Positions 10,275 through 45,583 of a stretch of 47,372 nt of DNA are shown here, one piece after another. The position numbers and the translations under genes were made by a program. Location: assembly GCA_947630935.1 (NCBI GenBank), contig CANRJL010000001.1, positions 1 through 47,372 of the forward strand, in the 5' to 3' direction. The stretch comes from an uncultured Bacilli bacterium (GTDB lineage: Bacteria > Bacillota_I > Bacilli_A > RF39 > UBA660). The notes beneath the pieces were generated by a model, which saw nothing but the letters and a program-made list of their open reading frames with translations, was not told the origin of the DNA and searched no databases. The stretch's first letter is position 1. The number at the start of each line of letters is the position of its first letter.

Positions 10275-10485
10275 TTTTTCACCTCCTATTCTTTACATTC
10301 TCATTATAAATAGTTTTTTTACTATTCATAAATGGCGGTGAATATCTTGTAAAGTATCATTAGTTGTGATATATCTTTTGCTATCTTACAATTTATTCTT
10401 ATATAAATTATATATATTTATTAATAATTTAGCAAGATATTTTTAATGCTTTATGTTCAAAATGTTAACCAAAATGGCAATTAAA

Positions 10486-10520
10486 AAACCTATAAAATAT
10501 TTTTTTTATTTTATAGGTTT
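10486..10520 (-). terminator. Putative terminator after the giant repeat gene
   Basis: 13-bp stem AAACCTATAAAAT / ATTTTATAGGTTT with a 9-nt loop and flanking A/T runs, 15 nt below the TAG stop at 10535-10537. Confidence 0.5.
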
Positions 10521-10534
10521 ATTACATTAGCCAA

Positions 10535-14374: not shown

Positions 14375-14405
14375 ATTTACTCTCTCCTAGCATACTATTG
14401 CAATT

Positions 14406-14434
14406 ATTATAACATAAATAAATTTTGAACACAA
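14406..14434 (-). promoter_or_regulatory. Candidate sigma-A promoter of the giant repeat gene (extended -10)
   Basis: On the minus strand: TTGTGT (14434-14429), 17-nt spacer, TGTTATAAT (14414-14406). It lies ~30 nt upstream of the RBS. Confidence 0.4.
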
Positions 14435-14481
14435 TATTGAAAAGATATTCTAAGTTAAAATTTTTAGAAATGTTTTATAAG

Positions 14482-14503
14482 AAAAAAAAAGACCAACGGT
14501 CTT
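14482..14503 (-). terminator. Intrinsic terminator of the 221-aa TasA-like gene
   Basis: On the minus strand: AAGACC-GTT-GGTCTT followed by T9, starting 2 nt after the stop codon. Confidence 0.6.
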
Positions 14504-14504
14504 C

Positions 14505-21710: not shown

Positions 21711-21773
21711 TTTTTTCAACTCCTTAATATTTAGCTATTATATGCTTTTTTGTGAATAAGTCAAGTTTTATTT

Positions 21774-29049: not shown

Positions 29050-29313
29050 TTATCCTTTCCAAGGGCATTCAAATGTATTTTGGGTACTAGAGCAACTTTT
29101 TTGCTCACCATTTTGCTCAGTAGGCATACAACATTTTACGGTAATACAATTTCCAGAACTACATTTTTCACATACAGCTTGAGAGCATTTAGTATTTTCA
29201 TCCATATTTTGACGAATTAAAGGCCAAATAGTAAAATAGAAAAAGGCTGACAAAGCCCCTATTCCAATAACTATTGCTACTGTAATATTTAATTCGCCTG
29301 TTGCCTCTTTCAT
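29050..29313 (-). CDS. Pilin-like protein 2 (Flp-sized hydrophobic N-terminus + Cys-rich tail)
   Basis: 87 aa with perfect AGGAGG RBS. MKEATGELNITVAIVIGIGALSAFFYFTIWPLIRQ is followed by a 45-aa tail with 8 Cys. Confidence 0.65.
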   Translation of the reverse strand: MKEATGELNITVAIVIGIGALSAFFYFTIWPLIRQNMDENTKCSQAVCEKCSSGNCITVKCCMPTEQNGEQKSCSSTQNTFECPWKG

Positions 29314-29331
29314 TTATTCCTCCTAATATTA

Positions 29332-29598
29332 TTATGGATTTGGGTTTTCTGGTGAGCTTTCATCTTTGTATGTGCAAGAAAAAGTCTCAGATTCTCCAGG
29401 TATTGAACAGCCTGTACAAGTTCTCGTACCTCCTACGCCTTCATCACAATTCGTACATTGAGCAGCAGCACATTTTGTATTGTTTGTAATAGAATTTCTT
29501 ACAGTTGGCCAGACAAATGCATAGAAGAATGCAGCTACAGCAGCTATTGCTACTACAGTGATAACAGTCATATTTAATTCACCTGTTGCTTCTTTCAT
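29332..29598 (-). CDS. Pilin-like protein 1 (paralogue of 29050..29313)
   Basis: 88 aa with perfect AGGAGG RBS. MKEATGELNMTVITVVAIAAVAAFFYAFVWPTVRN is followed by a tail with 6 Cys. Confidence 0.65.
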   Translation of the reverse strand: MKEATGELNMTVITVVAIAAVAAFFYAFVWPTVRNSITNNTKCAAAQCTNCDEGVGGTRTCTGCSIPGESETFSCTYKDESSPENPNP

Positions 29599-29675: not shown

Positions 29676-30464
29676 CTATACATTTAACATCATTAATAAG
29701 GCAAAGACTAGAAGAACCATTACTCCTACTCCTGTAGCTACAAGCATTTGCATTGTTTTCTTTTCCATTTTTTCTAATCGCTCTTTATATTTTAATTCCC
29801 GAGCCTTTTGTTGAAGATTAGAAATTGTTCTAGAAAACGCTAATAATTGTTCTTGCTTATGTTCTTGTCTTCCCAAAGATAAACGATATAAAAGACGCAT
29901 CATTCGCATTGAATCACGAACTGGGTAGGTTTTAGCAAAATTTATGTAAGGGTTTATAGTATTATCGCCGGAATTAATTTCGTTAATTAATTCTTGTAAA
30001 CCTTCTTTAAAAATTGGGGGAGCATCTTCAATAGACTTTCCTAAAGCTACAGGAACTGTATAATGTTGAATTAAGATTTCTAAGCTTTTTAAATAGTAAG
30101 GTAACATTGAATCAATATCATGTAAATGACGACGATAGTATTTTTTTAAATTACTATAGTCCATTTTAAAAACTAAATAACCAATTATTATTGAGAATAA
30201 AACGGTGATGTAAGAAATGTTTGAGATAAAGAAACATAATAGAACAACGATAATAATTAAGCCTCTTTTGACTCTTTTATTAAATAGAAAATCTGGGTTT
30301 ACTGAGTCACCATATCTTGCTCTTACATAAAAGTCCCAATCACTTTCTTTTAACTTTTGAAAATAAACTTCATTATCTGATACAAAACGATTGACACTGA
30401 TACGTCCGGTATAATTTAAAGCAAAGAATAAAATCAAGGCTAAAGCTATTATTTCAAAATACAT
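29676..30464 (-). CDS. TadC-like (T2SS F-family) membrane protein
   Basis: 262 aa. N-terminal TM, paired central TMs, a helical cytoplasmic domain and a C-terminal TM. The start overlaps the upstream stop (TAATG). Sits directly after the TadB-like gene. Confidence 0.6.
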   Translation of the reverse strand: MYFEIIALALILFFALNYTGRISVNRFVSDNEVYFQKLKESDWDFYVRARYGDSVNPDFLFNKRVKRGLIIIVVLLCFFISNISYITVLFSIIIGYLVFKMDYSNLKKYYRRHLHDIDSMLPYYLKSLEILIQHYTVPVALGKSIEDAPPIFKEGLQELINEINSGDNTINPYINFAKTYPVRDSMRMMRLLYRLSLGRQEHKQEQLLAFSRTISNLQQKARELKYKERLEKMEKKTMQMLVATGVGVMVLLVFALLMMLNV

Positions 30465-31360
30465 TATTCCACCCCCACATCTTCATAATAAAACCTTTCT
30501 CCTTTATATAAGAAGAAACAGTTTATCCAAATAATGGCATGGAGAATAAATTGAACATACCACATATCTAATAGTTTTAAATATGAAGCAGTGCCCAATA
30601 AAAATTGCATAGCCATAACTAATAAGAATAATGCTAGACCAAAAGTAACAAATCTTTTATGAAAATCAGCTCGGTCTATTTGGTCCCGATAAACTCCTTC
30701 AACTAGTGAGTCGATGTCCATTGATAAATTTTCTAATGCTTCACCAGAGTCTTTAGCGCCTTCTTTAGTTATTTGTAAAAATAATTGATTCATATTTTTA
30801 ACCATATAATAAGGATATTTTTTATTAAAGAAATCAATTGATTCATCGATAGTACCATTTTGATAAGACATATTTATCATGGTTTTAACATCTTCTAAAA
30901 CAGGGTTTTCTAAAATGCCAGAATCTCTTACTCCTTCAAGAGATTTAACAAAACTTTGCGTTGTTGTAAATTCCATAATGACATTGGTTGTATATGTCTG
31001 AATTTGTTCAAAAATAAATTCGGAATAAGCTTTTTGGCAGCGAAGATAAGCTAAAAAAGGAATAAATAAAACTGCTATAACTGCATATATAATAGCAACA
31101 ATTATATTGTAAAAATATAAATAAGATATAACTCCGGCAAAACCTGCAAATAAAATAACTTGGGTTATATATTGCCGAGGAGTATATTCTTGACCTAATT
31201 CTTTTACTTTTTCTCTTACTTTGACAAAACTATAATTGGAATATTTATTATAAGCATTGTTAATGCTTGTTGCAAAAAACTTATAAACATTTTCCCCATT
31301 ATTCAGATAATAGGATACAGCAAAAATGGCCAAAGCTAATAATAATATAAGTTCAATCAT
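30464..31360 (-). CDS. TadB-like (T2SS F-family) membrane protein
   Basis: 298 aa. The topology (N-terminal TM, two central TMs, soluble helical domain, two C-terminal TMs) and the position after the ATPase fit TadB/TadC. Confidence 0.6.
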   Translation of the reverse strand: MIELILLLALAIFAVSYYLNNGENVYKFFATSINNAYNKYSNYSFVKVREKVKELGQEYTPRQYITQVILFAGFAGVISYLYFYNIIVAIIYAVIAVLFIPFLAYLRCQKAYSEFIFEQIQTYTTNVIMEFTTTQSFVKSLEGVRDSGILENPVLEDVKTMINMSYQNGTIDESIDFFNKKYPYYMVKNMNQLFLQITKEGAKDSGEALENLSMDIDSLVEGVYRDQIDRADFHKRFVTFGLALFLLVMAMQFLLGTASYLKLLDMWYVQFILHAIIWINCFFLYKGERFYYEDVGVE

Positions 31361-31375: not shown

Positions 31376-32479
31376 CTATAGAGTTTCTATAGCGCTTTTT
31401 TGAGGTGATTCATTTACTTTATCTTCACCTTGATAAATATCATCTGGCAAAGTTATACCCGAAATGGCTAAATAATCTTTTAAATGTTTAGTTGGGTTGT
31501 TCATGGTTATTTCGCCTGTAAGAGTTTTTTGAAAGATGGTATTAACTTGGGCTTTATTATTTTCATCAACATAAAATTCACATATTTCCATAATTTCTCT
31601 TTGAAATCTGCCTAATTCTTTACTCATGTATCCTTTAACATATATTCCTATTTGAACATAACGATGGATAGTTGATAGAAACTGGTCAACATCAATATTA
31701 CTTTCTATAAGGGCAAACATTCGCAATGGAATTAAACTGGCTTTGTCAGAGTGAATAGTTGATAAAATATGATGCCCTGATGATATACTATTTCTAACAG
31801 CCATGACAGCTTCAGCGCTTCGCACTTCGGAAAGTAAAATCCAGATTGGGTTTTGCCGCATACAGGTTACTAAAACATCGGTATAACTGGCAATATTATT
31901 TGTTTTCATAGCAATTATATCACGATGAGGAAAAATGCGGTCTAGATGAAGCTCTAAGGTATCTTCAATGGTAATTATTTTTTCGTTTTCTTTAGTATGT
32001 GCGGCTAAATATTTGACAAGCTCAGTTTTTCCTGAACCTGTTTCCCCACTTACGATAATATTAGCATGACCTTCGACACATTTTAATAAAAAATCAAGTA
32101 GACTTGCCGAAACATATTTTTCGTTTAATAATTTTTCACGATTTAATCTTATTTTGGATGGTGTTTTACGAATTTGGCACGCAATACCATTCGTAGCAAT
32201 TGAATCGTGGATAAAGTTTAAACGAAGTTCTGCACTTTCAGCATCCAAAAAAGGATGAGCCATATTAAATGTTTTTCCCATAACATTAGCACATTGAAAT
32301 GCTAATTTTTCTAAAAGTGCATTATTTATTTCTGGCCTTTCTACTTGATAAACTCCTTTTGTAAGGGATTTTAACCAAACCTGTCCATTATTGTCATATG
32401 AGATATCAGTAATATCTTCGTCTCTTAGAAATTCTTCAATAGGTCCAAAATCTAATTGTGAAAATATTGCATCATTCAT
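31376..32479 (-). CDS. tadA: TadA/CpaF-family secretion ATPase (T2SSE/VirB11 superfamily)
   Basis: 367 aa. ITDISYDNNGQVWL, RLNFIH...IRK, Walker A SGETGSGKTE, ITIEDTLEL, Walker B-like IWILLSEVRSAEA and His box SGHHILSTIHS. Confidence 0.85.
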   Translation of the reverse strand: MNDAIFSQLDFGPIEEFLRDEDITDISYDNNGQVWLKSLTKGVYQVERPEINNALLEKLAFQCANVMGKTFNMAHPFLDAESAELRLNFIHDSIATNGIACQIRKTPSKIRLNREKLLNEKYVSASLLDFLLKCVEGHANIIVSGETGSGKTELVKYLAAHTKENEKIITIEDTLELHLDRIFPHRDIIAMKTNNIASYTDVLVTCMRQNPIWILLSEVRSAEAVMAVRNSISSGHHILSTIHSDKASLIPLRMFALIESNIDVDQFLSTIHRYVQIGIYVKGYMSKELGRFQREIMEICEFYVDENNKAQVNTIFQKTLTGEITMNNPTKHLKDYLAISGITLPDDIYQGEDKVNESPQKSAIETL

Positions 32480-32511: not shown

Positions 32512-33366
32512 TTAATTATTTGAATTGTTATTATTATTGTTGTTATTATTGTTATTGTTATTTGTATTACTATTTGTTCCTGTTGAAATTTGTTCATCAG
32601 GGATAACAGCAGCTTTAGATAGAATAAATTCTCTTACATAAGCACTGGCAACTTCTGTTTCGCCAGGATTTGCCGTATAATTTTTATTTCTTGGAACAGG
32701 AATTATATCTATTCCCGTATATTGAGCTTTACGTAATAAAGAATACATATCATCTGGTACAGCAAATAGTAATGATGCTGGGGTTCTACTTTCAGTTGAT
32801 GTTTCAAATACTGATTGTCCAGAACCATCACGAACATCTAAAACCCGAATACTCCGGATTAAATTAGTGTATATTAATTTATTATAATTGTCATTACCTT
32901 TAACCCATAAATCAATATAGTTTCCTGGGAAAATAGAATTTCCGTAAGTTGTATGAATATCTACTCCTAATTCAAATAGTGTATAACCATCTGGAATATC
33001 AGCAATTACATTATCAGGTTGACTTTCAGGAGAAACAATTGCTGATGTATAGAAAAAACTATTTTGAGGAATGGTTGTTCCATACATTACTTCTTTACCT
33101 ATTAATTGATTAGCATTTCTTATCATATTATTACTTTTACTTAATACAGCATTAGATACTTCCATATATCCTATATCATCAGCCGTAATAACGTGTCTTG
33201 ATGATAAAGCGTTTTTAGCATAAGGAATAGTTGTAGGATTGGTTGCTGTATTAACTCGCCAAGTATATCCTATATATAATACTAAGATTCCAGCTATGAC
33301 ACATATAATGGTTACAGTATTTTTGTTACTCAAAAATTTTTTAATTCTTGTTATTAAATTTCCCAT
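32512..33366 (-). CDS. CpaB/RcpC-like (SAF-domain) pilus assembly protein with a poly-Asn tail
   Basis: 284 aa. N-terminal TM (VTIICVIAGILVLYIGY), then a SAF-like segment (RHVITADDIGYMEVS...LIGKEVMYGTTIPQNSFF). The C-terminus is NSNTNNNNNNNNNNNNNSNN. Confidence 0.55.
   Translation of the reverse strand: MGNLITRIKKFLSNKNTVTIICVIAGILVLYIGYTWRVNTATNPTTIPYAKNALSSRHVITADDIGYMEVSNAVLSKSNNMIRNANQLIGKEVMYGTTIPQNSFFYTSAIVSPESQPDNVIADIPDGYTLFELGVDIHTTYGNSIFPGNYIDLWVKGNDNYNKLIYTNLIRSIRVLDVRDGSGQSVFETSTESRTPASLLFAVPDDMYSLLRKAQYTGIDIIPVPRNKNYTANPGETEVASAYVREFILSKAAVIPDEQISTGTNSNTNNNNNNNNNNNNNSNN
32515..32574 (-). repeat. (AAT/AAC)n low-complexity tract encoding poly-Asn
   Basis: Read directly: ATT/GTT triplets on the plus strand immediately above the stop codon. 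Confidence 0.9.
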
Positions 33367-33384: not shown

Positions 33385-33786
33385 CTAATTTCCTAATTCT
33401 AAAATAGAATCTACACGATTAACTATATCAAAAGATTCGGAATTAGAACTTATTTGATAAGTGTTGCTTTTAGTAGTAACTTGGACACCAGCTTTTGGTG
33501 GTGATTCATATATTTCGTAAAAGTCAATTTGATAAGTATTTAGATTAGCACTTTCAGCAAATCTTCTTAAAAAATTTTCAACATATTTTTCACGATTAAT
33601 ACGTAATTCACCACTTTCTCTGTAGTAGCCATAGTCGACAGCATCGACCATAGCTGCTTCAGATACTTCTTTAATTAAATAATAATCTTGGGTACTGGTT
33701 GTAGATACATTGGAAACTAACATCATGATAACTATGATAAATACGCCTAATGCAATTAACCAATATCCCCAATAGCTTTCTTTCAT
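33385..33786 (-). CDS. Pseudopilin-like small protein
   Basis: 133 aa. N-terminus MKESYWGYWLIALGVFIIVIMMLVS shares the M[KR]E[AS] start and single N-terminal helix with the four other subunit-like genes. Confidence 0.5.
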   Translation of the reverse strand: MKESYWGYWLIALGVFIIVIMMLVSNVSTTSTQDYYLIKEVSEAAMVDAVDYGYYRESGELRINREKYVENFLRRFAESANLNTYQIDFYEIYESPPKAGVQVTTKSNTYQISSNSESFDIVNRVDSILELGN

Positions 33787-33796: not shown

Positions 33797-36700
33797 CTAT
33801 TTCCATGAAGGACCGACGCCAGTAACTCTATCTAAGCAAACGCCGCCTTGACAGTAATTTGTATTAGTCCATAAAACAAAATCTTCATTACGTTTATTTT
33901 CGGTGAAATAGTCATTTTCTTCACCAATATCTAAGAATCTTGATTTACAATTAACGCTGTAATCAACACCATTAATTGTATGATTTTCACAATAGATAGC
34001 ATCTTCACCACTTGCACTTAAACTACTAATAGTTGGAATTGCTGTGTTAGAATAACTGCCTGCTGCTTTGTTATATTTTCGCAAATTTATCATATTTTGT
34101 CTAGTTAAAGTATATGAATATTCAGATTGTGTATAAGCATATTCACCAGTTTCTTCAATTTCATTTCTGGTAACTTCAGCCTTTTTACTTGCATCAGTCG
34201 TATTTCCACTCGCTTGAGTTTGACCACTATTTTGACCTTCTGTTGAAGTTTGGCCTCCTGATTGACTAGTTGTTTTACCGCCATTTGATAAATTCCAGTT
34301 ATATCCAGTTTGGCGACAATTTTCAGTATTGCCATCTTTGCATTCATTTGGGAATAAATTGCCAGTTGTAACAGAACGGAAGACAGCTTTTGACGTTAAT
34401 TCATCATTATCTTCAATTTCATCTGATCCATCAACTATACATGTAGGACAATCTTTTTTAGAATCATTTGTAATATCACAAGAACCACCTTCACATGTTA
34501 CATGGCATGTTGGACAGTTGTTAATGTAATGACAAACATAACCACCATCAATACTTGTTGGAGTTGTAGTACCACATTTATTTTCTTCTGGTAAATTACT
34601 ATATGCTTCGATAACGCTTTTTACCTCTTCTGATTTGCCATCTTCGGCAGCATCATTAATTAATCTTCCTAACTCGCCATTGGTATTATTTTGACCAATA
34701 TTTTTAAAGTAGAATTTAAATTGGAACACTCCTTTATGTTGTCTTAATGATACTGGAAGTGAACTATCAGGAAGTCTTGTCCATAAGCAATCTTTATAGA
34801 CACCATTAGAATCTTGAATACATTGTTCAGCATTTACTTTAATTGCTCCATATTGAGTATAAGTAGAAAATTGGCCTCGTGGTACATAAACACCGGTGTT
34901 AGTTACTGTTTTTTGAACTCTTTGAACTGTATATCTTGTTTTATTTTCTAACTTACAAGTAGCATCATTACAACTTACTATTTGTTCAGTTGTTGTTAAA
35001 TTTTCTTTCATCTGTTCATCATTATAACTTTGACCAGTACATTTATATTCATCATTTACGTCCGTTCCACAATAAACATTTTTGGAATCAGTAGTTTTAC
35101 TTTTTTCGCTAAATGCTGGTAAATTGTCTTCTTTTTTAGTAACTATATCATTGTAGGCATTATCAACAGTTTTTTCATCATTATTATCTTCACCATAAGT
35201 ATATTTAATTATAGGATCAAATTTCATATCATTTGTCCATTCTGTACATTGCTTGTAGCTATTTTGAACATTTTCTAAAGCTTGTTTAGCATTATTATAT
35301 GTCTTTTCAGCATCATCTTTTTTAGCTGTAAATGTTGATTTTACACCATTAAATGTTGATGTTACTTTAGCTTCAGTCAATTTATTCTCTTCATCTGGTT
35401 TATAAATATACCATACATATTGAGCTTGGAATTCATCGCTAGCTCCTTCAGCAACAGTTTCTGGAGCACTTTCTTCGGCTTTTTTATATTTAATATATTC
35501 ATTGAAAGCATTTATTAAATTTTGTTGAGCAGTTTTAACATCTTTCAAATATTTAGTTTCATCAATACCTTTAGATGGATCAGTTGCTCCACTAATATAG
35601 CAATTTCGGGTGCCTTTTATAGTAGTTTCTAATTCGAAGTAACCACCACTTTGCGAATATTTAGCTGTTGGAACTGTAAAATTATATTCTTCATCACACC
35701 AAACTTTGCAATAAGGATTACCTTTAAAAATGCTTGTTGCTTCAAATGAATTATTCATTTGATCTGTATGGTCAATTACACATTTTTTTACTTGATTTGC
35801 ACTAGAATTACATTCTGTTGGTGTTCGATTTATGTCGCTTATTGTTCCCGAAACAGTAGATTCTGCATCAAAATCATTACATGTCGATGGAAGAGTTACA
35901 TTGGCAAAACAGTTAGTACAATATGTCTTGTAATCTTCACATGAAGAGCTATCGCCCTCTTTACATTCTTTTTCATATTTGCCACATTCACATTCTGTTT
36001 TATATTGTTCTTCACTAGCACATTCTTCACCATTAGAGCAAATATAATGTTTAACATCATCAATTTCTTCAATACTGCATTCTTTTGTACATTCTGCTAA
36101 ATATGTTGCTTCATTATCGTCTTCTTCACTTTCAGGATCTGGTCCATAGAATGTTGTTACACCATTTTTAGTAACTTTTTGGCAAGTTTTTTTACATTGA
36201 TTTAAATATGTTTTTTTAGTTGTAACTTTACCTTCTTTATCATAATATGTGCCATTATCTTCCCGACAGCCACATTGTTTAGTAAATTCTTCAGCATTTG
36301 CTAATTTGCTACCATCATTGCCATAATAAACACCATCAACAATTTCGCATTTATGATTTTCATCTTCTTGGCAAAGATCTGGAGAACAATGATAATTTTT
36401 TTCAAAAGTAGAAGCATTTTTATCATCTAAATACATTTTTTCAGTTGTTGTTTTGCCTGTAGGTTCATCATTTACTTTTTCTACTCTAGTTACTTCGTAA
36501 TAGTATTTACCTTGATTGTCTTTTTTACATTCACATGTGTCATTATCCCATACTAAATCTAAATCTGATAAATAGATATCATCTGAACCATAATTACGAA
36601 GAAGTAATTGATTTTGTAAGCTATAATTACGGTCACCATTGGAATTTATAGGGCCATAATAGGCAACGTTTGCCTGAGCTGAATGCTTATCACTCCAAGC

Positions 36701-37645
36701 TGTTTTTAAAGTTATTCCATATGCTTTGTTGTTTTTTTGAGCTTCTTTAAACTTGCCATCTTCCGTATTAACATGAATTATAAATTCAGCTTTTTTGCCA
36801 TTTTCACTTACTGTTATTAGTTTTTTATCATTTTCTTTTCTGATATTACATTTATAACCATATTCACAACTTACTGTAAAATCATCCCAATATACTTTTT
36901 CAATATTGCTAGCATTTTTAATTTCAATTGTAAGGATTTCACTATGGTCATTTTCATGTTCTACTTTTTTGATTTTTGTTTCCCATTTAGCATCCCAAAT
37001 GATTCCACTATCAACTAATGAATTATAGATTTCTTTAGCACTTTTACCTTTATTAGCATCACTATTTACAGAATTTCCAGCCTCAATAGCTTTTTGATAT
37101 ATTTCTTTTAAAAATTTAGTATCATTTTGCCAACTAGGCCAATAATTTGAATTTGTAAATAAGGTATCTTTTCGATAAGGTGCAACAGCATTTTGATCAC
37201 CACCAGTATCAAGTTTACCATAATATCCTTCAATTAATCTAAATAATGCTGTGCCTAATTTAACGCTTGTATTTGAACCTTTGCCTGCGCCAATTCCGGC
37301 GTCAATTAATTCTTGATAGCCAACCGTTAAAGCGACATCTAAGTCCTGTTTATTAGATTCCTGTGGATGAAGCGTTCTAATACATTTACTATTACTACCA
37401 GAATTATGACTTTTTCCAGGAGCCATGCAAAATAATTTACCGACTATGCCACCATTTACATAAGCATTATAATTATGAATTTCATGTTTACCTGCTGCAT
37501 AAAAGGCACCACCAGTAAGTGATACTCTAACTAACTCATATGGGCAAGTATAAACATTTAAATCAATTGTTGTTGCTTTGACTGGCAAAACTTGAAAAAA
37601 TGTTAAGATGCATACAAATGCAATTGTTTCTAATATCTTTTTCAT
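33797..37645 (-). CDS. Very large secreted Cys-rich protein (candidate adhesin or filament-associated protein)
   Basis: 1282 aa with AGGGGGA RBS. Sec signal MKKILETIAFVCILTFFQVLPVKA. Many Cys throughout (count not tallied), in C-x-C, CxxC and CPTC contexts. Residues ~371-556 carry YY-x-x-x-G modules like those in the sortase substrates. No cell-wall sorting signal or C-terminal TM. Confidence 0.8.
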   Translation of the reverse strand: MKKILETIAFVCILTFFQVLPVKATTIDLNVYTCPYELVRVSLTGGAFYAAGKHEIHNYNAYVNGGIVGKLFCMAPGKSHNSGSNSKCIRTLHPQESNKQDLDVALTVGYQELIDAGIGAGKGSNTSVKLGTALFRLIEGYYGKLDTGGDQNAVAPYRKDTLFTNSNYWPSWQNDTKFLKEIYQKAIEAGNSVNSDANKGKSAKEIYNSLVDSGIIWDAKWETKIKKVEHENDHSEILTIEIKNASNIEKVYWDDFTVSCEYGYKCNIRKENDKKLITVSENGKKAEFIIHVNTEDGKFKEAQKNNKAYGITLKTAWSDKHSAQANVAYYGPINSNGDRNYSLQNQLLLRNYGSDDIYLSDLDLVWDNDTCECKKDNQGKYYYEVTRVEKVNDEPTGKTTTEKMYLDDKNASTFEKNYHCSPDLCQEDENHKCEIVDGVYYGNDGSKLANAEEFTKQCGCREDNGTYYDKEGKVTTKKTYLNQCKKTCQKVTKNGVTTFYGPDPESEEDDNEATYLAECTKECSIEEIDDVKHYICSNGEECASEEQYKTECECGKYEKECKEGDSSSCEDYKTYCTNCFANVTLPSTCNDFDAESTVSGTISDINRTPTECNSSANQVKKCVIDHTDQMNNSFEATSIFKGNPYCKVWCDEEYNFTVPTAKYSQSGGYFELETTIKGTRNCYISGATDPSKGIDETKYLKDVKTAQQNLINAFNEYIKYKKAEESAPETVAEGASDEFQAQYVWYIYKPDEENKLTEAKVTSTFNGVKSTFTAKKDDAEKTYNNAKQALENVQNSYKQCTEWTNDMKFDPIIKYTYGEDNNDEKTVDNAYNDIVTKKEDNLPAFSEKSKTTDSKNVYCGTDVNDEYKCTGQSYNDEQMKENLTTTEQIVSCNDATCKLENKTRYTVQRVQKTVTNTGVYVPRGQFSTYTQYGAIKVNAEQCIQDSNGVYKDCLWTRLPDSSLPVSLRQHKGVFQFKFYFKNIGQNNTNGELGRLINDAAEDGKSEEVKSVIEAYSNLPEENKCGTTTPTSIDGGYVCHYINNCPTCHVTCEGGSCDITNDSKKDCPTCIVDGSDEIEDNDELTSKAVFRSVTTGNLFPNECKDGNTENCRQTGYNWNLSNGGKTTSQSGGQTSTEGQNSGQTQASGNTTDASKKAEVTRNEIEETGEYAYTQSEYSYTLTRQNMINLRKYNKAAGSYSNTAIPTISSLSASGEDAIYCENHTINGVDYSVNCKSRFLDIGEENDYFTENKRNEDFVLWTNTNYCQGGVCLDRVTGVGPSWK

Positions 37646-37661: not shown

Positions 37662-38378
37662 CTAAATCTTCCTCTTTTTATTTCTTTTTATTTGAACAAT
37701 GATAGCAATCATCATTATTACTATAAGAACGGTGCCACCGATATACCAGTAAATTCTATTTTTAGATGCTAATTCTTCAGCTCCTTTAAAATAATTGTTA
37801 TTGCTATTTACATATTCATTTTGAATTTTTTCTTCATCTACTTCAATGTTTGTTGTAACATATTTTTCACAATAATATGCATCTTTATTTTCGCAAAGGG
37901 CTTGGTCAGCTAATTCATTATACATTGGAGTCAATACTTTTATTTCTCTTAATTCTTCATTAGAACATCCGGAAACATCGGAAAAAATTTTGATAGTATA
38001 AGTTCTTATCTTTTGAGTATCAGGAACTCTTAAAGAAAAACTACCATTAACTAAATCTCTAGCGTGATACTCTTCATCAATATGTTCTTCTTCATTTGTA
38101 ATTCGAAAATAAATTTGATCAGTTATATTGTATATTTTAACATTAAAATGTTCAGCAAAGTAATAACCACTATTCAAGGTATTAGCTATTTCATCAGATA
38201 CTTCTGGATGGGGATTACCTTCATAATCTTCTTTTACTCGTTCCATTTCATAAGTGCCTACGACATTAGCCGCAGCTGTACTGATTTCATTTTGTGTTTT
38301 ATAATCACATTCAGCATGTACTGTTTGGCTTAACAACGCACACATAGCAATTAAAAAAATTAACCCTTTTTTTCGCAT
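37662..38378 (-). CDS. Type I membrane protein, first gene of the Tad-like block
   Basis: Preferred start is ATG 38378 (MRKKGLIFLIAMCALLSQTVHA signal); ORF-track start 38438 is TTG. C-terminal TM YWYIGGTVLIVIMMIAIIV plus a KRNKKRK tail. Confidence 0.65.
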   Translation of the reverse strand: MRKKGLIFLIAMCALLSQTVHAECDYKTQNEISTAAANVVGTYEMERVKEDYEGNPHPEVSDEIANTLNSGYYFAEHFNVKIYNITDQIYFRITNEEEHIDEEYHARDLVNGSFSLRVPDTQKIRTYTIKIFSDVSGCSNEELREIKVLTPMYNELADQALCENKDAYYCEKYVTTNIEVDEEKIQNEYVNSNNNYFKGAEELASKNRIYWYIGGTVLIVIMMIAIIVQIKRNKKRKI

Positions 38379-38532
38379 AATTATTCCATCCAATCTAAAA
38401 TATATAAGTATTGTATCAAAATATCTTTTGTTTTTCAATCATTTTATACTTTTTCTATTTTATTAATTTCTACTATTCAAAAATGCTTCTTTATGATATA
38501 TTTTTAATTAGAAAAATAGATTGGAGTTATAT

Positions 38533-39249
38533 ATGAAAAGTATACATTTTAAAGAATTATTAAAGGCTTTTGGAATTATTTTATTGTATTTAGTTTTGGT
38601 TCCAACTTTTGTAACAATTATTTTTAAAATTTTTATTAAAGATATTAATAATCTTTCTATGGCTATTTTAGTAAATCTGATATCTTATTTTATAGATATT
38701 GTTATTATTTATCTTATTTATCATAAAAGTTTGAAAGAAGAATGGAAACGATTCATTAAAAATTTTAAAGCTTATGCCAAAATTGCTTTGCAAAATTGGG
38801 CTAAAGGTTTTCTAGCTATGTTTTTATTTAATTTTTTAATTATTTTAGTTTATCATAATATGGCGGCTAATGAAGAATCTAATCGTCAATTACTAGAACA
38901 ATTACCTATTTTTTCACTTATTTCTATGATCTTTTTAGGTCCTTTCTTTGAAGAAATTACTTTTCGAAAAGGTTTTAAAAAAGCTTTTGATAATCCCAAG
39001 ACATTTTTAATTGTTACTTCATTATTATTTGGTGGCGCTCATTTAATTACTAGTTTTGATTTGCATTCTTTTGATGCTTTTGTAAAAAGTCTTCCTCAAT
39101 TATTATACATTTTTTCATATGGCTCTTTAGGTTATTTTTTTGGAAAAGCTTATTATGAAACAGATTGTATTTTTACAAGTATTTTAGCTCACGTTTTGCA
39201 TAATGGTTTGACAGTTTTTATTTTATTATTAAGTGCTAGTCTTTTATAG
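38533..39249 (+). CDS. CPBP-family intramembrane glutamic protease (CAAX/Abi type)
   Basis: Preferred start is ATG 38533 (ORF-track start 38521 is TTG). Motifs EEITFRKG, FGGAHL and HVLHN lie in a polytopic membrane protein. Confidence 0.8.
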   Translation: MKSIHFKELLKAFGIILLYLVLVPTFVTIIFKIFIKDINNLSMAILVNLISYFIDIVIIYLIYHKSLKEEWKRFIKNFKAYAKIALQNWAKGFLAMFLFNFLIILVYHNMAANEESNRQLLEQLPIFSLISMIFLGPFFEEITFRKGFKKAFDNPKTFLIVTSLLFGGAHLITSFDLHSFDAFVKSLPQLLYIFSYGSLGYFFGKAYYETDCIFTSILAHVLHNGLTVFILLLSASLL

Positions 39250-39259
39250 GTGAAAGTTT

Positions 39260-40111
39260 ATGGAAAATATAGTTAGTGATAAAAAAAAATTAGGGCTTTT
39301 ACCTAAAATTCTTATTATTCTTTTTTTATTAATTCTTCTTATTTACTGTTGGATGCATTTTGGTGAGCCAAAAATTATAACGGTGAAAGATTTTATTATT
39401 CAAGATGAAAAAATTCCTTTATCTTTTGATGGGTTTACAATTGTTCATTTTTCAGATATCCATTTTGGAAGAACTACTAATGAAAAAGAATTAAATAAAG
39501 TTGTCGATAAAATTAATGAAATTGATGCAGATATTGTTTTGTTTTCAGGTGATTTATTTGATCCTTATATTACTTTGTCTGATGAAAATATTTCTTATTT
39601 ACAAGATACTTTTAAAAAGATAAATGCCAAAATGAAAAAATATGCTGTAGTTGGCGATTATGATACGGACCATTTAGATGTTTATGAACAAATTTTAAAA
39701 TCTAGTAATTTTGAATTATTAAATGGTCATAATCAAAGTATTTATTATAAAGGAAATGTTCCAATTTATATAAGTGGTATTGCTTCTATTTCAAAAATTA
39801 CACCTGATTATAGCAACGCTTTTAGTAAAGATGGTGATTATTTACAATTATTTTTAAGTCATGAACCAGGAGTTATTAATGATATCAAAAATAAAGCAGA
39901 TTATGTTTTTAGTGGTCATACCCTAGGTGGTCAAATACGAATTCCTTTTGTGGGCGGAATTAAAAAAATGCCTAACTCTTCTATTTATGAAATTGGAAAA
40001 TATAATGTGGATAAGGCAACTTTATTTGTAAATAATGGGATTGGTACCCAAGATATTTCATTACGGCTGTTTAATTTGCCAACTATTTATTGTTATCGTT
40101 TTGTTAAGTAA
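39260..40111 (+). CDS. Membrane-anchored metallophosphoesterase (calcineurin-like)
   Basis: 283 aa with AGGTGA RBS. N-terminal TM, then HFSDIHFG, SGDLFD, GDYD and SGHTLGGQIRIP motifs. Confidence 0.85.
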   Translation: MENIVSDKKKLGLLPKILIILFLLILLIYCWMHFGEPKIITVKDFIIQDEKIPLSFDGFTIVHFSDIHFGRTTNEKELNKVVDKINEIDADIVLFSGDLFDPYITLSDENISYLQDTFKKINAKMKKYAVVGDYDTDHLDVYEQILKSSNFELLNGHNQSIYYKGNVPIYISGIASISKITPDYSNAFSKDGDYLQLFLSHEPGVINDIKNKADYVFSGHTLGGQIRIPFVGGIKKMPNSSIYEIGKYNVDKATLFVNNGIGTQDISLRLFNLPTIYCYRFVK

Positions 40112-40164: not shown

Positions 40165-40587
40165 TTAGACACATTCTACATATGTATCTGATAAACAGCG
40201 AAGTGCGCATACACAACTTAAATCAATTGTAAAAAATGAATTTGTTGCAACGTATGGATTTAAACTTGTCGTATCTGGATTATCTTCAAGAACTCTACAA
40301 GTACAGCAGTTATTATCTACTTTTTCTACTCGAAAGATAGTAGATGTTGTTTGTGGTGTGACGGGATCTTTGGTAGTTGGCATAGATAATGGTGTTCCAT
40401 TAGCACAGCAAGTGAAAAGTTGAATTGGTCTAGTATTACATACTAAGCAGTTTGGGCCGCCTCCTAATACAGGTCGGTCACATGAATCTAAGCAAGAATC
40501 TGGACATGCATTTTGTTGTAAAACTAAGATGACATTTAGTATTTCTGAGATGCAGTTAGAATTATTATCGTTGTTACACATAAACAT
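40165..40587 (-). CDS. CotY/CotZ/ExsY-family Cys-rich spore coat/crust protein
   Basis: 140 aa. CISEILNVILVLQQNA, IFRVEKVDNNCCTCRVL and FFTIDLSCVCALRCL parallel B. subtilis CotZ segments as I recall them (FFRVERV..., IEVDLDCFCAINCL). Contains 19 Cys. Confidence 0.7.
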   Translation of the reverse strand: MFMCNNDNNSNCISEILNVILVLQQNACPDSCLDSCDRPVLGGGPNCLVCNTRPIQLFTCCANGTPLSMPTTKDPVTPQTTSTIFRVEKVDNNCCTCRVLEDNPDTTSLNPYVATNSFFTIDLSCVCALRCLSDTYVECV

Positions 40588-41902: not shown

Positions 41903-42424
41903 TTAGCCAAAAAAGAGAAATGTTATAAAAAAGGCAGCCAAAATACCAACGGCATCGGCAAATAAACCAGCACTTAAAGCATGCCTAGTTTTGGTCACTT
42001 TAATTGAGCCAAAATACAAAGCAAGAACGTAAATAGTTGTATCAGTACAGCCTTGTAAGGTCGAAGCTAAACGACCAACTAAAGAATCAGGACCATAAAC
42101 ATTAAAAATATTATTCATTATAGCAAGCGTAGCTGTTCCAGAAATTGGTCTTATAAAAGCCATTGGCAAGATACTAATGGGAATTTGGAAATGGTTAAAA
42201 ATGGGGTTTAGAAAAGAAAAAACAAATTCTAAAAAATGAGAATTTAAAAATAAATTAGTGGCAAAAACCATGGCAATAACAGCAGGCGCAATATGAAATG
42301 TAGTTATAATACCATCTTTAGCCCCTACTAAAAAAGAATCATAAATTTTAGTTTTATGTTTTAAGGCATAAAGTAAAATAAACAAAACAAATATAGGAAC
42401 GATATAATTTGATATTTGATTCAT
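41903..42424 (-). CDS. spmB: Spore maturation protein B
   Basis: 173-aa polytopic nucleoside-recognition-type membrane protein. It overlaps spmA by 4 nt, in the dacB-spmA-spmB order known from B. subtilis. Confidence 0.8.
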   Translation of the reverse strand: MNQISNYIVPIFVLFILLYALKHKTKIYDSFLVGAKDGIITTFHIAPAVIAMVFATNLFLNSHFLEFVFSFLNPIFNHFQIPISILPMAFIRPISGTATLAIMNNIFNVYGPDSLVGRLASTLQGCTDTTIYVLALYFGSIKVTKTRHALSAGLFADAVGILAAFFITFLFFG

Positions 42425-42996
42425 CTTTTCCTCCTTTTTCGATAATCATAATACAATCCCGCGAGTGAAGAACAAGTGGTCGCTAATAAACTTGTAATAA
42501 TGATTTCAGAAGGATTGGCACTTTGATTCATCATTCGAAGGGCAATGACAGTTGTGGGGATAATTGTTACTCCGCCAGTATTTAAAATTAAAAAGGTTAC
42601 CATTGCTTCTGTAGCAGTATCTTTTTGCTGATTATCTTTTTGCATTGCTTCCATGGCTTTTAAACCAAAGGGAGTTGCTGCACTTCCTAAGCCTAAGGCG
42701 TTGGCAGCAATATTAGAGGCAATATAACCTAAAGCAGGATGATTAGGTTTTAAAGAAGGAAAAAGTTTAGTTAATAAAGGTCTAACAATATTCGAAAATT
42801 TTTGTAATAAACCCGAATCTTCAGCAATTTGCATAATTCCTGACCATAACACTAATAAGGGCAACATATCCCATAATAATTGTAAACCATCAATTCCTCC
42901 TTTTAAAATTTCATTATTTAAGAGTGAGATATTGCCAGTAATTATCATATAAAATGCTGATATGATAATAAATGATACCCATATTATATTTACCAT
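42421..42996 (-). CDS. spmA: Spore maturation protein A
   Basis: 191-aa polytopic membrane protein. It overlaps the dacB stop by 7 nt, in the conserved operon position. Confidence 0.8.
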   Translation of the reverse strand: MVNIIWVSFIIISAFYMIITGNISLLNNEILKGGIDGLQLLWDMLPLLVLWSGIMQIAEDSGLLQKFSNIVRPLLTKLFPSLKPNHPALGYIASNIAANALGLGSAATPFGLKAMEAMQKDNQQKDTATEAMVTFLILNTGGVTIIPTTVIALRMMNQSANPSEIIITSLLATTCSSLAGLYYDYRKRRKR

Positions 42997-44051
42997 TTAA
43001 ATAACCACCGAAAGAACCTGTTAAAAAATCCTTCTTTCTTATTATTTATCTGTTGTTCTTCTTTTTTATATATCTTTACAGTTCCTAATAATTGATTTTC
43101 TAAATAAATATTGGCTACTCCTACTTCAGGTTCATTTTGATTATTAATTTGAAAATCAATTTTTATTTTTTCTTGTTCTTCAGTTGTTAGTAAAGCATAA
43201 AAAGGTTCTTTTAAATAATACTTGTCTTCATTTTCAGGGTCTATTACTGTTTTCTCGTCTAAAAGTTTTACGCGATTATATTTTTGCAAATTTCGTTCAT
43301 GAAGATTTTTATGGTCTGCAAAATCATTGCCATCATTTAAAGTTACAACAATTGTTGTCTTAGAATTTTCTTGGGCAGAGGTAACTAAAGTTCGCTTAGC
43401 TTTTTTGGTAAAACCAGTTTTACCACCAATTAATTTATTATAAGAAAATAAAAGTTTATTTTTATTTTGCCATACATAAGTTTTGCCATCTGTTTTAGCT
43501 GTATAAGATTTTGTCTTAATAATTTCTTTAAATACAGCATTATTTAGAGCATAACGCATTAATAAGGCCATATCATAGGCAGTTGATGTGTTACCTTCGC
43601 CATCTTTTTCTTCTAAGCCATGGTTATTTAAAAATTTAGTATGACTCATTCCTAATTCATAAGCTTTTTCATTCATTTTTTTGACAAAATTTTCCATATT
43701 ACCACTTACGGCATAAGCTATTTCAATCGCAGCATCATTCCCACTTCTTAGCATTAAACCATAGAGCAAATCTTTTAAGGTTATTTGTTCATTCATAGTT
43801 ATATAAATAGCACTTCCATAAGCATTTAAAACTTCTTTACCAACTTTGACAATAGTATCTAATTTCTTATTTTCTAAGGCTATAATACAAGTCATTATTT
43901 TAGTTGTACTAGCAATTAATTTTTCTTTATCAATATTTTTTCCTTCTAATACTCTTTTAGAATCGGCATCCATAACAATATATGCTTCGGCAGATATAGC
44001 ACTTATTTTTAAGGGTATTAGTAATAAAAAAATTGCAATTATCCCTTTCAT
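42990..44051 (-). CDS. dacB: D-alanyl-D-alanine carboxypeptidase (sporulation-type PBP5*)
   Basis: SxxK (ASTTKIMT), SGN (RSGNDAA) and KTG (GKTGFT) boxes. Preferred start is ATG 44051 (MKGIIAIFLLLIPLKISA signal) with an AGGTGA RBS; ORF-track start is 44114. Confidence 0.85.
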   Translation of the reverse strand: MKGIIAIFLLLIPLKISAISAEAYIVMDADSKRVLEGKNIDKEKLIASTTKIMTCIIALENKKLDTIVKVGKEVLNAYGSAIYITMNEQITLKDLLYGLMLRSGNDAAIEIAYAVSGNMENFVKKMNEKAYELGMSHTKFLNNHGLEEKDGEGNTSTAYDMALLMRYALNNAVFKEIIKTKSYTAKTDGKTYVWQNKNKLLFSYNKLIGGKTGFTKKAKRTLVTSAQENSKTTIVVTLNDGNDFADHKNLHERNLQKYNRVKLLDEKTVIDPENEDKYYLKEPFYALLTTEEQEKIKIDFQINNQNEPEVGVANIYLENQLLGTVKIYKKEEQQINNKKEGFFNRFFRWLFKW

Positions 44052-44071
44052 ATTTTCACCTAAAAAAGTAT

Positions 44072-44100
44072 ATGAAAAAATAGACTTTTTTAGTCTATTT
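44072..44100 (-). terminator. Hairpin/terminator between the 101-aa gene and dacB
   Basis: AAATAGACT-AAAAA-AGTCTATTT on the minus strand directly after the TGA stop, running into a T-rich stretch. Confidence 0.45.
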
Positions 44101-44406
44101 TCACAGTAATTCAATTTTTTTTATACTAGCAATGGGAATTTGTTTATTATCTAAGGTTAACAAATTATTATTATTTTTGCCTACTAATACAATCTCTTTT
44201 ATTCCTGCATCAGTAATAATTCGAACTTTTTTTTTATAGACAAAATCTTTTCGAGCAAAGATGGAATTAATTTCTTCAGTAATTTCATAATTACTCTGCT
44301 CTTTTGGTTCTTTTAATGTGCCATAAAAGTAATCTTCATTATTTCTGATTTCTTTTTCAATGGGGTTTTTAAATACTTTTGGTAAATCTTTTTTCACTTT
44401 TTTCAC
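44101..44406 (-). CDS. Hypothetical small protein
   Basis: 101-aa ORF, Lys/Glu-rich, with no recognisable motif. Confidence 0.5.
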   Translation of the reverse strand: MKKVKKDLPKVFKNPIEKEIRNNEDYFYGTLKEPKEQSNYEITEEINSIFARKDFVYKKKVRIITDAGIKEIVLVGKNNNNLLTLDNKQIPIASIKKIELL

Positions 44407-44458
44407 CTTCTTTAGTATTTTATGTTTAAATTTTTATTTTTTGACTCATATTAGTAAT

Positions 44459-45583
44459 ATGACTAAAACAGATAAATGGACAATCTTTTTTTTCTTATTA
44501 TTTTTTACAATTCTTTTAGGAATTAGTCTTTTGTTAATGTATCACGCTAAGTTTATTACAAATATGTTTGCTTATCATTTTGAAAAACAATGTTTATGGA
44601 TTCTTATTGGGATTATTTTAGGTATTATATTTTATTTTATTCCAGCAAAGTTCCTTTTTCGCTTTAGTTTTCTTTTTTATCTTTTAAATCTTTTATTATT
44701 ATTGTTAGTTTTAATCGTTGGAAAAAATGTTAATGGTGCGAAAGCATGGATTCAGGTTGGTAATTGGCAATTTCAACCAAGTGAATTGATGAAAATATCT
44801 TATTCTCTTTTCTTAGCCCAATTTTGTTCTAATCGTTCTTTTTATACCCTAAAAGATGAATTTAAATTTATTTTTAAAGTTCTTCTTATCTTTTTCTTTC
44901 CGGCAATTTTAGTTTTTTTGGAGCCAGATACAGGAGCGATTATTTTCTTTTTATTGATTACAATTGTATTACTGTGGAATACTAAAATTTCCAAAAAATG
45001 GTTTTTTATTTTCTTATTTATTATAGGACTTATTTTAGGTTTATTTTTCTATTGTTATTTTTTCCAAAGAGATTTATTAGTCAAAATGTTAGGAACTAGT
45101 TTTTTTTATCGAGTTGAACGGGTATTGTCTTTAGGTAGTGGTTTGCAAATTGAAAATGCTACCACAGCTTTAGGAAGTGCTCCTCTTTATCGCTTTAATT
45201 TATTAGAAACAGGCATTTATATTCCTGAAGCTCCGACTGATTTTATTTTTGCTCTTTCTAGTAATGTATTTGGGTTATGCGGTCCTTTAGCTATTTTAAT
45301 ATGTTATTTTGGTCTTGATTTAGTTTTTTTACATTTTTATAAATTAGAAAAAAGAAAAACCCAAAAACTTTTCTTTTTAGCTTTTTTAACAATTTTTTTC
45401 TTTAGTCAATTTGAAAATATCGGGATGAATTTAGGACTATTACCTATTATTGGAATTCCGTTACCTTATCTAAGTTATGGTGGTTCTTTTATGATTATTT
45501 TATTTATTTTTTTAGGAATTTTATTTCAACAAAAGAAAAGTTTCACTAAAAAAAGCAAAACTTTTCATATTGATTACCGATAA
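44459..45583 (+). CDS. SEDS-family peptidoglycan glycosyltransferase (FtsW/RodA/SpoVE)
   Basis: QPSELMKISYSLFLA, PEAPTDFIFA and GIPLPYLSYGGS motifs with ~10 TMs. Start is placed at ATG 44459 (MTKTDKW...) to avoid the antisense overlap of ORF-track start 44360; the RBS is weak, so the start is uncertain. Confidence 0.85.
   Translation: MTKTDKWTIFFFLLFFTILLGISLLLMYHAKFITNMFAYHFEKQCLWILIGIILGIIFYFIPAKFLFRFSFLFYLLNLLLLLLVLIVGKNVNGAKAWIQVGNWQFQPSELMKISYSLFLAQFCSNRSFYTLKDEFKFIFKVLLIFFFPAILVFLEPDTGAIIFFLLITIVLLWNTKISKKWFFIFLFIIGLILGLFFYCYFFQRDLLVKMLGTSFFYRVERVLSLGSGLQIENATTALGSAPLYRFNLLETGIYIPEAPTDFIFALSSNVFGLCGPLAILICYFGLDLVFLHFYKLEKRKTQKLFFLAFLTIFFFSQFENIGMNLGLLPIIGIPLPYLSYGGSFMIILFIFLGILFQQKKSFTKKSKTFHIDYR

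Follow-up and report, generated by a model that had tools for sequence, protein, structure and literature searches.

A cysteine-rich, anchorless protein of uncultured gut Bacilli as a predicted thioester adhesin linked to a type-IV-filament-like machine

How is a very large secreted protein displayed when it carries neither a wall-sorting signal nor a membrane anchor of its own? The question is raised by a 1282-residue, cysteine-rich protein, hereafter the giant, encoded in a 47,372-nt stretch of contig CANRJL010000001.1 (assembly GCA_947630935.1) from an uncultured Bacilli bacterium; this whole stretch is called the window. Our best reading, to which we give a probability of roughly 0.55 for the whole chain of events, is that the giant is a thioester-headed adhesin relying on the adjacent filament-like machine for display. 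It rests on a predicted thioester domain at the N-terminus and on a gene neighbourhood that is conserved, in part duplicated together with the giant, and recognisable on the plasmid pLS20.

A previous inspection of the letters (the sequence-only reading) had described this open reading frame (ORF), with no strand given, as a secreted Cys-rich protein lacking an anchor, and each part of that description was borne out. The frame exists on the minus strand with an ATG start; the strong ribosome-binding site and tight spacing noted before correspond to AAGGGGG 8 nt upstream of the ATG and to 10 nt between the stop codon and the next gene, which encodes a DUF5411 protein. The N-terminus MKKILETIAFVCILTFFQVLPVKA, followed by TT, has the n/h/c layout of a classical Sec signal, the highest hydropathy windows of the entire protein fall in its hydrophobic stretch, and in the family alignment A24 is invariant and the V-x-A consensus is kept. 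Scans of the full length found no LPxTG, NPxTG or related motif and no hydrophobic window beyond the signal peptide, a C-terminal transmembrane segment included. Cysteines occur throughout (52, or 4.06%, against about 0.3-1.5% in most other proteins of the window, which are apparently cytoplasmic or membrane proteins), and this richness is beyond chance because most of them are kept family-wide and 15 are invariant. The Cys-rich string quoted earlier, CPTCHVTCEGGSCDITNDSKKDCPTCIVDG, starts at residue 1044, and the Ser/Gly/Thr/Gln-rich string, TSQSGGQTSTEGQNSGQTQASGNT, at residue 1126. The giant and its parts are as follows.

33797-37645, minus strand: the giant, 1282-aa Cys-rich secreted protein, stop codon included (ORF list and translation, ATG start)
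37574-37645, minus strand: signal peptide, residues 1-24, MKK...VKA before TT (hydropathy and conserved A24)
36416-37573, minus strand: predicted head resembling a class II thioester domain, residues 25-410 (AlphaFold2 model and Foldseek)
37427-37429, minus strand: codon of Cys73, candidate thioester Cys; FCMAPG here, family consensus YC[ILM]DPG
36614-36616, minus strand: codon of Gln344, candidate thioester Gln; motif x-Q-[KRNQ]-[MF]-[LIV]
35876-36415, minus strand: Cys-bracketed 'YY-G' hairpin-helix modules and helices, residues 411-590 (AlphaFold2, motif positions)
34463-35875, minus strand: conserved core, residues 591-1061, with NPYCKVWC.E.Y.F.LPTA..SGGYF, FSTYTQYG and NIGQSN..LGRL
34439-34534, minus strand: Cys cluster, residues 1038-1069, C-x5-C-x2-C-x3-C-x4-C...C-x2-C (alignment)
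34199-34270, minus strand: Ser/Gly/Thr/Gln linker, residues 1126-1149 (string located)
33800-34195, minus strand: C-terminal alpha/beta domain, residues 1151-1282 (alignment and AlphaFold2)

The head was predicted to be a thioester domain (TED) from two invariant motifs ahead of any fold search. TEDs are defined by a Cys in [YFL]C-phi-zeta on strand C and a Gln in phi-Q-zeta-phi-phi on strand Q, the only universally conserved residues of these domains (PMC6194298). C73 is present in 42 of 42 giants from genome loci (consensus YC[ILMV][DSAN]P, FCMA in the target) and Q344 in 41, the remaining one having a gap, and both motifs fit the published definitions. The N-terminal alignment has C73, P94, R136 and Q344 as its invariants, and C73 lacks a conserved partner Cys in the head (C34 at 44%, C88 at 54%). 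An AlphaFold2 model of residues 1-415, built from 26 sequences (predicted local distance difference test, pLDDT, 84.7; predicted template-modelling score, pTM, 0.77), runs through three strands, a five-helix lobe, a beta-sandwich (E221-333) and a returning strand that bears Q344, with C73 closing the third strand. Class II TEDs have a beta-sandwich inserted ahead of the Gln strand (PMC6194298), and the order of elements in the model is exactly theirs. The Foldseek comparison that followed, a check the sequence-only reading had proposed, returned a sole PDB match below 1e-3, chain 6fwv_B, the Bacillus anthracis protein BaTIE (E 6.5e-8, probability 1.00, 351 columns).

Several observations weigh against this assignment. 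The template-modelling scores to BaTIE are low (0.31 and 0.26, with a root-mean-square deviation of 9.2 Å over the 351 columns), and no further TED structure appeared among the top 50 Foldseek matches. The Pfam families TED (PF08341) and TED_2 (PF20610) gave no match to the target with E allowed up to 10, TED_2 being matched weakly (E 0.017) by 1 of 26 family members. The Cys-Gln spacing is 271 residues compared with 171-204 in solved class II TEDs, the residue following C-phi in the target is Ala rather than a hydrophilic one, and the TQxx-phi-W motif is absent, the family having D[VL]A.T.AYQ.[LM] and VFRW[IL] instead; that motif is dispensable for bond formation (PMC6194298). Neither membership nor non-membership of the TEDs can be established by sequence methods, because the TED of TIEpLS20, the thioester adhesin of pLS20, itself found no TED in a phmmer search of the PDB. 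Cys68 of TIEpLS20 is experimentally essential and Gln256 is its modelled partner (PMC8092201); an hhalign comparison placed C73 of the family on Cys68, with only the Cys motif aligned and a probability of 10%. Taking model and motifs together, residues 25-410 are with good confidence predicted to be a class II TED, and we infer that Cys73 and Gln344 could form the thioester.

Among class II TIE adhesins, BaTIE (6FWV), SaTIE and EfmTIE86 share with the predicted head the order of elements, a third-strand Cys and a Gln past the inserted beta-sandwich (PMC6194298), and the class likewise has its Cys about 70-90 residues from the N-terminus and its head in a distal position on a long secreted protein. 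These adhesins differ in being anchored by sortase through LPXTG and in having isopeptide or ester stalks, whereas the giant has no sorting signal, no CnaB, a larger helical subdomain and no TQxx-phi-W; neither CnaB nor another stalk family was found in it with Pfam.

Behind the head, a second AlphaFold2 model (residues 83-1282, 62 sequences, pLDDT 79.4) describes the rest of the chain. Residues 411-590 form four strand-strand-helix units, each bracketed by Cys, and then helices; residues 437-520 contain three clear [DN]G-x-YY modules, in agreement with the central YY-G block reported from the letters. Module copy number varies among homologues (alignment occupancy only 0.46-0.52), and the modules are likely a spacer or stalk. 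The core is the best-conserved part of the family, with identity to the target peaking at 63% over residues 641-680, and is modelled as a beta-rich body with two long helices at a pLDDT mostly above 85; no homologue of it was found with Foldseek, in Pfam or in the PDB. Foldseek comparison of the 83-1282 model, which excludes residues 1-82 and hence C73, with PDB and BFVD gave nothing significant, and matches resembling the major histocompatibility complex (E ~1e-2) were taken as chance, both being a sheet plus two helices. In the Cys cluster, where the CPTC context cited by the sequence-only reading is found, C1038, C1044, C1047, C1051, C1056 and C1066 are 100% conserved and C1069 97%; its pLDDT is moderate, falling below 50 only from residue 1062 on, and it could be either a disulfide knot or a metal site. 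The linker is an insertion private to the target (family occupancy 0.29, absent in the homologues of locus L001), with a pLDDT below 50, disordered in the model. The C-terminal domain ends in the peptide G[IVM]GP[SA]W[KR] (codons at 33800-33820), which 38 of 39 aligned members have, in most as the exact C-terminus and otherwise with 5-7 residues beyond it.

Exhaustive HMMER searching with residues 83-1282 at a cut-off of E<=1e-3 yielded a family of 295 cluster representatives, 60 of them at E<=1e-30. Most members have 900-1500 aa, the best relative is 44% identical, and the giant shares 30-32% identity end to end with the syntenic proteins of L001. All members of the 39-sequence alignment have a signal peptide and 3.6-5.4% Cys. 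Identity to the target in this alignment is 10-25% in residues 1-560, 33-63% in 561-720, 31-48% in 921-1120 and 36-49% in 1161-1282. The giant had no match in Pfam, NCBIfam, PHROGs or PDB sequences, searched as a single sequence and as profiles, or in plasmids by tblastn; the 39-member alignment met no Pfam family able to name it, only one member giving a lone weak YxiG match, and the family profile matched no PDB sequence. A phage origin was rejected, there being no PHROG or BFVD match. Judged by these searches, the giant belongs to a large, unnamed and unannotated protein family of abundant animal-gut bacteria. In one member, P0156, an unrelated N-terminal domain replaces the thioester head, which indicates, at the level of sequence, that heads are swapped on a conserved body.

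The giant is encoded within an operon whose products form the putative machine.

37662-38378, minus strand: upstream partner, with a signal peptide, an outside domain of ~190 aa with 4-5 Cys, a C-terminal transmembrane segment and a KRNKKRKI tail
33385-33786, minus strand: DUF5411 protein, 133 aa, with a short M[KR]ES.WG leader and one transmembrane segment (Pfam PF17424, E 4.7e-56)
32512-33366, minus strand: CpaB/RcpC-like protein, sub-threshold (PF16976, 26.4 bits against a cut-off of 28.8; TIGR03177, E 7.3e-8)
31376-32479, minus strand: secretion ATPase of the T2SSE/VirB11/TadA/FlaI superfamily (PF00437, E 1.2e-24)
29676-31360, minus strand: two polytopic platform-like membrane proteins, 298 and 262 aa, of near-constant length in most loci
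29050-29598, minus strand: two small Cys-rich pilin-like proteins, 88 and 87 aa, with MKEATGELN and a transmembrane segment
28013-29031, minus strand: two larger pilin-like proteins, 180 and 159 aa, with MREAIGG.. or MRESIGS.. and a transmembrane segment
25360-28000, minus strand: operon end, a 345-aa conserved protein with no family match and a 509-aa Pro-rich transmembrane protein with a weak CD1107-like match
25371-25352, minus strand: terminator-like hairpin at the downstream end of the operon

The partner gene, which probably starts at ATG 38378 (the mechanical ORF start is TTG 38438), is co-directional and ends 16 nt upstream of the giant. It is conserved in related loci as a membrane-anchored protein of 238-258 aa and is present upstream of the giant in nearly every locus that reaches far enough among the 37 species loci described below; the giant is therefore the second gene and not, as first described, the head of the operon. 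The label 'Tad-like' is a loose one: the ATPase has a T2SSE domain, the CpaB match is sub-threshold, and no Flp, TadE or prepilin-peptidase family was found in the locus with Pfam or NCBIfam, a point against a filament reading as well as a difference from Tad systems. The best NCBIfam matches of the ATPase, all far below cut-off, were led by VirB11, followed by conjugal TadA, TrbB and FlaI. The 298- and 262-aa membrane proteins had no family match.

With one genome scanned per species, 37 loci were recovered, nearly all of them in uncultured gut metagenome-assembled genomes labelled Bacilli or Tenericutes (three are labelled otherwise; Candidatus Ventrenecus is included) from rabbit, chicken, mouse, Hadza humans and roe deer. 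Gene order is invariant: a divergent metallophosphoesterase and CPBP/Rce1-like protease, the ~250-aa partner, the giant, DUF5411, one or two CpaB-like proteins, the ATPase, the 298-aa and 262-aa membrane proteins, two or three small pilins, two pilin-like proteins of ~160-180 aa and the ~345-aa protein. The triplet of partner, giant and DUF5411 is tandemly duplicated in L001 (= L016), L007 and L002, and L010 has three partner genes and two giants. Paralogous giants of the same genome are 36-43% identical overall, with 24-36% in the tenths towards the N-terminus and 55-67% in those towards the C-terminus, and between paralogous cassettes the DUF5411 copies are 76-92% identical while the partners are only 36-40% identical. 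Heads and partners thus diverge together as the C-terminal region and DUF5411 stay constant, the picture expected of alternative heads on a common dock.

DUF5411 itself starts with M[KR]ES[YF]WGYW and a transmembrane segment, comparable to the MREAIGG and MRQAIG starts of the larger pilin-like proteins and to MKEATGELN plus a transmembrane segment in the small pilins. Because a short leader and a transmembrane segment are common to the pilin-like proteins of the locus, DUF5411 looks like a further pilin-like subunit, and on sequence grounds it is a candidate minor pilin or adaptor. In six species (L015, L018, L021, L025, L027 and L034) DUF5411 is extended by a low-complexity linker and a C-terminal module, so that these proteins resemble, by analogy, modular type IV pilins. 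The 546-aa DUF5411 protein at L015:4557-6197 has a module resembling SH3 plus an M15 (VanY-type) wall peptidase, with the motif EWWHFQD.

A related arrangement occurs in the conjugation operon of the Bacillus subtilis plasmid pLS20 (NC_015148). TIEpLS20, annotated there as 'thioester domain-containing protein' at 6477-8780, is followed by a 126-aa transmembrane protein, and the plasmid ATPase matches the ATPase profile of the locus at 9e-47. Further matches join the 126-aa protein to DUF5411 (Pfam 1.4e-5, sub-threshold; locus-derived profile 2.4e-6) and two pLS20 membrane proteins to the 298- and 262-aa proteins in the same order (1.3e-5 and 1.7e-6); these membrane and DUF5411-like profile matches reach just 15-18 bits, with E-values against 14 proteins, which counts against our best reading. 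The profile matches are convincing because they are colinear. By tblastn the DUF5411 protein of the window had no match in plasmids. Genes 34 and 36-39 of pLS20 thus encode, as in the window, an anchorless Sec-exported TED adhesin, a DUF5411-like protein, an ATPase and two membrane proteins in the same order, and by sequence and order genes 34-39 are the closest studied relative of the window locus. TIEpLS20 shares the class II-type head with the Cys (YC[IM]DP) and Gln (YQ[KR][LM]) motifs of the giant, its own sites being VYCIDPDK at the Cys and SYQRLM around Gln256 where the giant family has [YF]C[ILM].P and YQ[KR]ML. It differs in its length of 767-778 aa, in its CnaB-type stalk and in not being Cys-rich, and no similarity to the giant is detectable past the Cys motif. 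The plasmid has neither the upstream partner nor the CpaB-like gene, and the block sits inside a plasmid type IV secretion system (T4SS) operon, whereas the window locus is chromosomal and stand-alone, with clear pilin-like genes and no T4SS genes found in the window. This comparison suggests that the adhesin-DUF5411-ATPase block is an autonomous display machine, of which the window locus would be the chromosomal, stand-alone version. TIEpLS20 likewise has no sorting signal and does not need sortases, and its mode of attachment is unknown (PMC8092201, PMC8557374). The pLS20 literature calls the ATPase VirB11 and holds that Gram-positive conjugation makes no pili (PMC8092201, PMC8557374), and the pLS20 family paper states that no pilus components are encoded. 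A 76-aa protein at 14035-14265 of the plasmid (locus L045) matches T4SS_pilin (PF18895) at E 1.3e-7, above the family cut-off.

Synteny in 37 species, co-duplication with DUF5411 and colinearity with pLS20 together support a functional link between the giant and the machine, and on these comparisons we lean towards machine-dependent display. A candidate mode of docking comes from other filaments: PilC/PilY1 uses its final ~10 residues to extend the sheet of a PilK-type minor pilin by a beta-strand, the ~1200-aa MshQ does likewise by modelling, and in Tad pili CpaL supplies the terminal strand in cis (PMC13533445). By analogy the terminal peptide of the giant might be donated as a strand to DUF5411, a tentative proposal that we consider rather doubtful; the extended DUF5411 proteins do not end in GPSWK and so give it no 'in cis' support. 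The adhesin part of the filament-tip adhesin that the sequence-only reading had listed among its options gains support from the head, while we infer the existence of a filament, the location of the giant at its tip and the docking mode.

Under the preferred reading, Sec would export the giant, with cleavage of the signal peptide after Ala24, and a type-IV-filament-like machine would present it beyond the cell wall. At the tip, the internal thioester between Cys73 and Gln344 would bond covalently to an amine of its target (host, mucus, food particle or other cell). Below the head would come a variable number of Cys-bracketed hairpin-helix modules as a spacer, then the conserved body found only in this family and the C-terminal domain ending in G[IV]GPSWK. 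The giant itself lacks any anchor to wall or membrane, and docking of this conserved C-terminal part on DUF5411, possibly with the last residues donated as a beta-strand as in PilC/PilY1/MshQ, is proposed. An ATPase-driven filament of Cys-rich pilins would carry the giant through the wall, and the membrane-anchored partner, diverging in step with the giant, might hold or chaperone it before loading.

Four other explanations were weighed, which rank by likelihood as a partner-tethered adhesin, a structural part, a released cargo and a conjugative-element adhesin. In the first, the giant would be a surface adhesin independent of any filament, held at the membrane or wall by the partner, a type I membrane protein, or by binding of its body to wall polymers, with the machine genes only co-regulated. 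The partner does have a signal peptide and a C-terminal transmembrane anchor, and its co-divergence with the giant suggests direct binding. A tether of ~190 aa would, however, barely cross a Gram-positive wall, and three features stay unexplained: the near-unchanged DUF5411 in the duplicated cassette, the family-wide terminal peptide and the same adhesin-DUF5411-ATPase order on the very distant pLS20. We regard this explanation as unlikely, while still allowing it about one chance in a handful.

A lower likelihood attaches to a structural role, in which the body would be a wall-spanning collar, cap or assembly initiator of the filament, taking over the function of the secretin/Rcp parts of diderm Tad systems, and the head a non-reactive scaffold. 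Such a role is consistent with the conservation of the body (residues 591-1061, up to 63% identity) and with its having no known fold relatives, and PilY1/PilC and CpaL serve filament initiation besides adhesion (PMC13533445). Under it a fast-evolving head would have no need to keep the thioester Cys and Gln so strictly, and neither tandem paralogues with divergent heads nor the different N-terminal domain of P0156 would be favoured, all of which make it improbable.

The type II secretion system (T2SS), a related filament machine, expels folded periplasmic proteins. The cargo and matrix options offered by the sequence-only reading amount to such a pseudopilus pushing the giant into the medium or a biofilm matrix, and the Sec signal without an anchor is compatible with them. 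They fit the terminal peptide and cassette duplication less well than an adhesin does: both the peptide and the pilin-like gene duplicated with the giant suggest that attachment is stable, Sec substrates of monoderms normally need no T2SS, and known TED heads sit on adhesins tethered to the surface (PMC6194298, PMC4450167). Release is accordingly more improbable still. Least probable of all is a mating-pair adhesin of an integrated conjugative element, comparable to TIEpLS20 for pLS20, for while colinearity with pLS20 genes 34-39 and the weak CD1107-like 'mobile element' match of the last operon gene point that way, no VirB4, VirD4, relaxase or integrase was found in the 47-kb window and the locus keeps the same chromosomal place beside the metallophosphoesterase and CPBP genes in more than 20 species, as expected of a core cluster.

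Returning to the machine-displayed adhesin, the giant is best read as a variant of two known groups, TED adhesins and type IV filament tip proteins, with a body that has no detected homologue. Like the giant, PilC/PilY1 and MshQ, the tip proteins of type IVa/MSHA pili, are large Sec-exported non-pilins (about 1000-1200 aa) whose genes lie next to those of minor pilins; the N-terminal adhesive part varies, and the C-terminal part and extreme C-terminus are conserved (PMC13533445). They differ in having no sequence or fold similarity to the giant, whose machine is of the monoderm VirB11/TadA type, and no PilY1 beta-propeller was found in the giant in Pfam or among the Foldseek matches of the 83-1282 model. 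TadG/CpaL of Tad (type IVc) pili and the Myxococcus Kil pilus 'Tip' complexes place variable exposed modules on Tad-type filaments through minor-pilin-like parts (PMC13533445, PMC12075869); CpaL/TadG unites the pilin-like domain and terminal strand in one chain, whereas DUF5411 and the giant are separate genes. Cpa, the tip protein of the sortase pilus of Streptococcus pyogenes, carries its thioester head at the pilus end, as proposed here (cited in PMC6194298, PMC8092201), and differs in being a class I TED joined covalently by sortase to another kind of pilus. A related CpaF/PilC/DUF5411 operon with a different, internalin-like protein occurs in Roseburia, Ruminococcus and Eubacterium (PMC9523054).

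Thioester adhesins have so far been sortase-anchored wall proteins or sortase-pilus tips, TIEpLS20 being the lone exception; in dozens of uncultured gut species, the giant family adds anchorless predicted thioester heads that are genetically tied to a machine of ATPase, platform and pilins. Our boldest suggestion, which we hold possible and clearly less probable than display itself, is a new class of type-IV-filament-like pilus in Firmicutes whose thioester adhesin tip is a separate Sec-exported protein, strand-donated to a DUF5411 minor pilin. If it is true, Gram-positive conjugation would have its long-missing 'conjugative pilus' in this same module on plasmids of the pLS20 family (genes 34-41), and the display of the anchorless TIEpLS20 would be accounted for. 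Adhesin display and filament use in Gram-positive mating thereby become concretely testable in the tractable pLS20, and DUF5411 gains a hypothesis at the level of function.

The extracellular apparatus of the locus as a whole is unusually Cys-rich, the small pilins of the window having 6.8% and 9.2% Cys. Their N-terminus, MKEATGELN.TV...FFY..WP, is almost invariant in the 37 species, and their C-terminal halves are hypervariable with 6-8 Cys; in extracellular pilins of presumably anaerobic gut bacteria, this abundance could reflect disulfides or metal binding. A scan for promoters and terminators was uninformative in this AT-rich DNA (95 sites, 94.3 expected). TTGATA-17-TATAAT (11/12), at 29657-29629 on the minus strand, is the region's best sigma-70-like match; its place just upstream of the first pilin gene is a hint that high pilin expression is driven from an internal promoter, the overall scan being no better than chance. 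Divergent from the operon, at 38521-40111 on the plus strand, are a CPBP/Rce1-like intramembrane protease and a metallophosphoesterase, conserved in about 20 loci. Given that the window contains no A24 peptidase, one may speculate that the CPBP protease processes the short M[KR]E..G leaders.

The rest of the window (G+C content 28.7%) carries uvrB and several sporulation-type genes: a CotZ-like coat protein at 40165-40587 on the minus strand, with 11.4% Cys, and two Gate-domain proteins, an S11 carboxypeptidase and an FtsW/RodA/SpoVE-family protein at 41903-45583. Since the CotZ-like, Gate-domain, S11 carboxypeptidase and FtsW/RodA/SpoVE genes occur together, spore formation is suggested, and the lineage, labelled 'Bacilli/Tenericutes', is low-GC, wall-bearing and probably spore-forming, with the window chromosomal. 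A second giant ORF of 1279 aa lies at 10535-14374 on the minus strand and has 114 Cys (8.9%) and only a weak filamin-repeat match; it was rejected as a paralogue of the giant, being at a different locus and absent from the family search. Its neighbourhood (5135-15170) includes an S26/S24 signal-peptidase-like protein (8434-9558), a DUF5305 protein (7269-8444) and a weakly camelysin/TasA-like protein (14505-15170). Elsewhere in the window, a sortase with an N-terminal extension of ~350 aa (22684-24261, plus strand) adjoins an LPXTG-type protein (21801-22496, minus strand), so sortase display exists in the organism and is not used by the giant. The same sortase neighbourhood holds a 385-aa protein with 15 Cys (20562-21719, minus strand).

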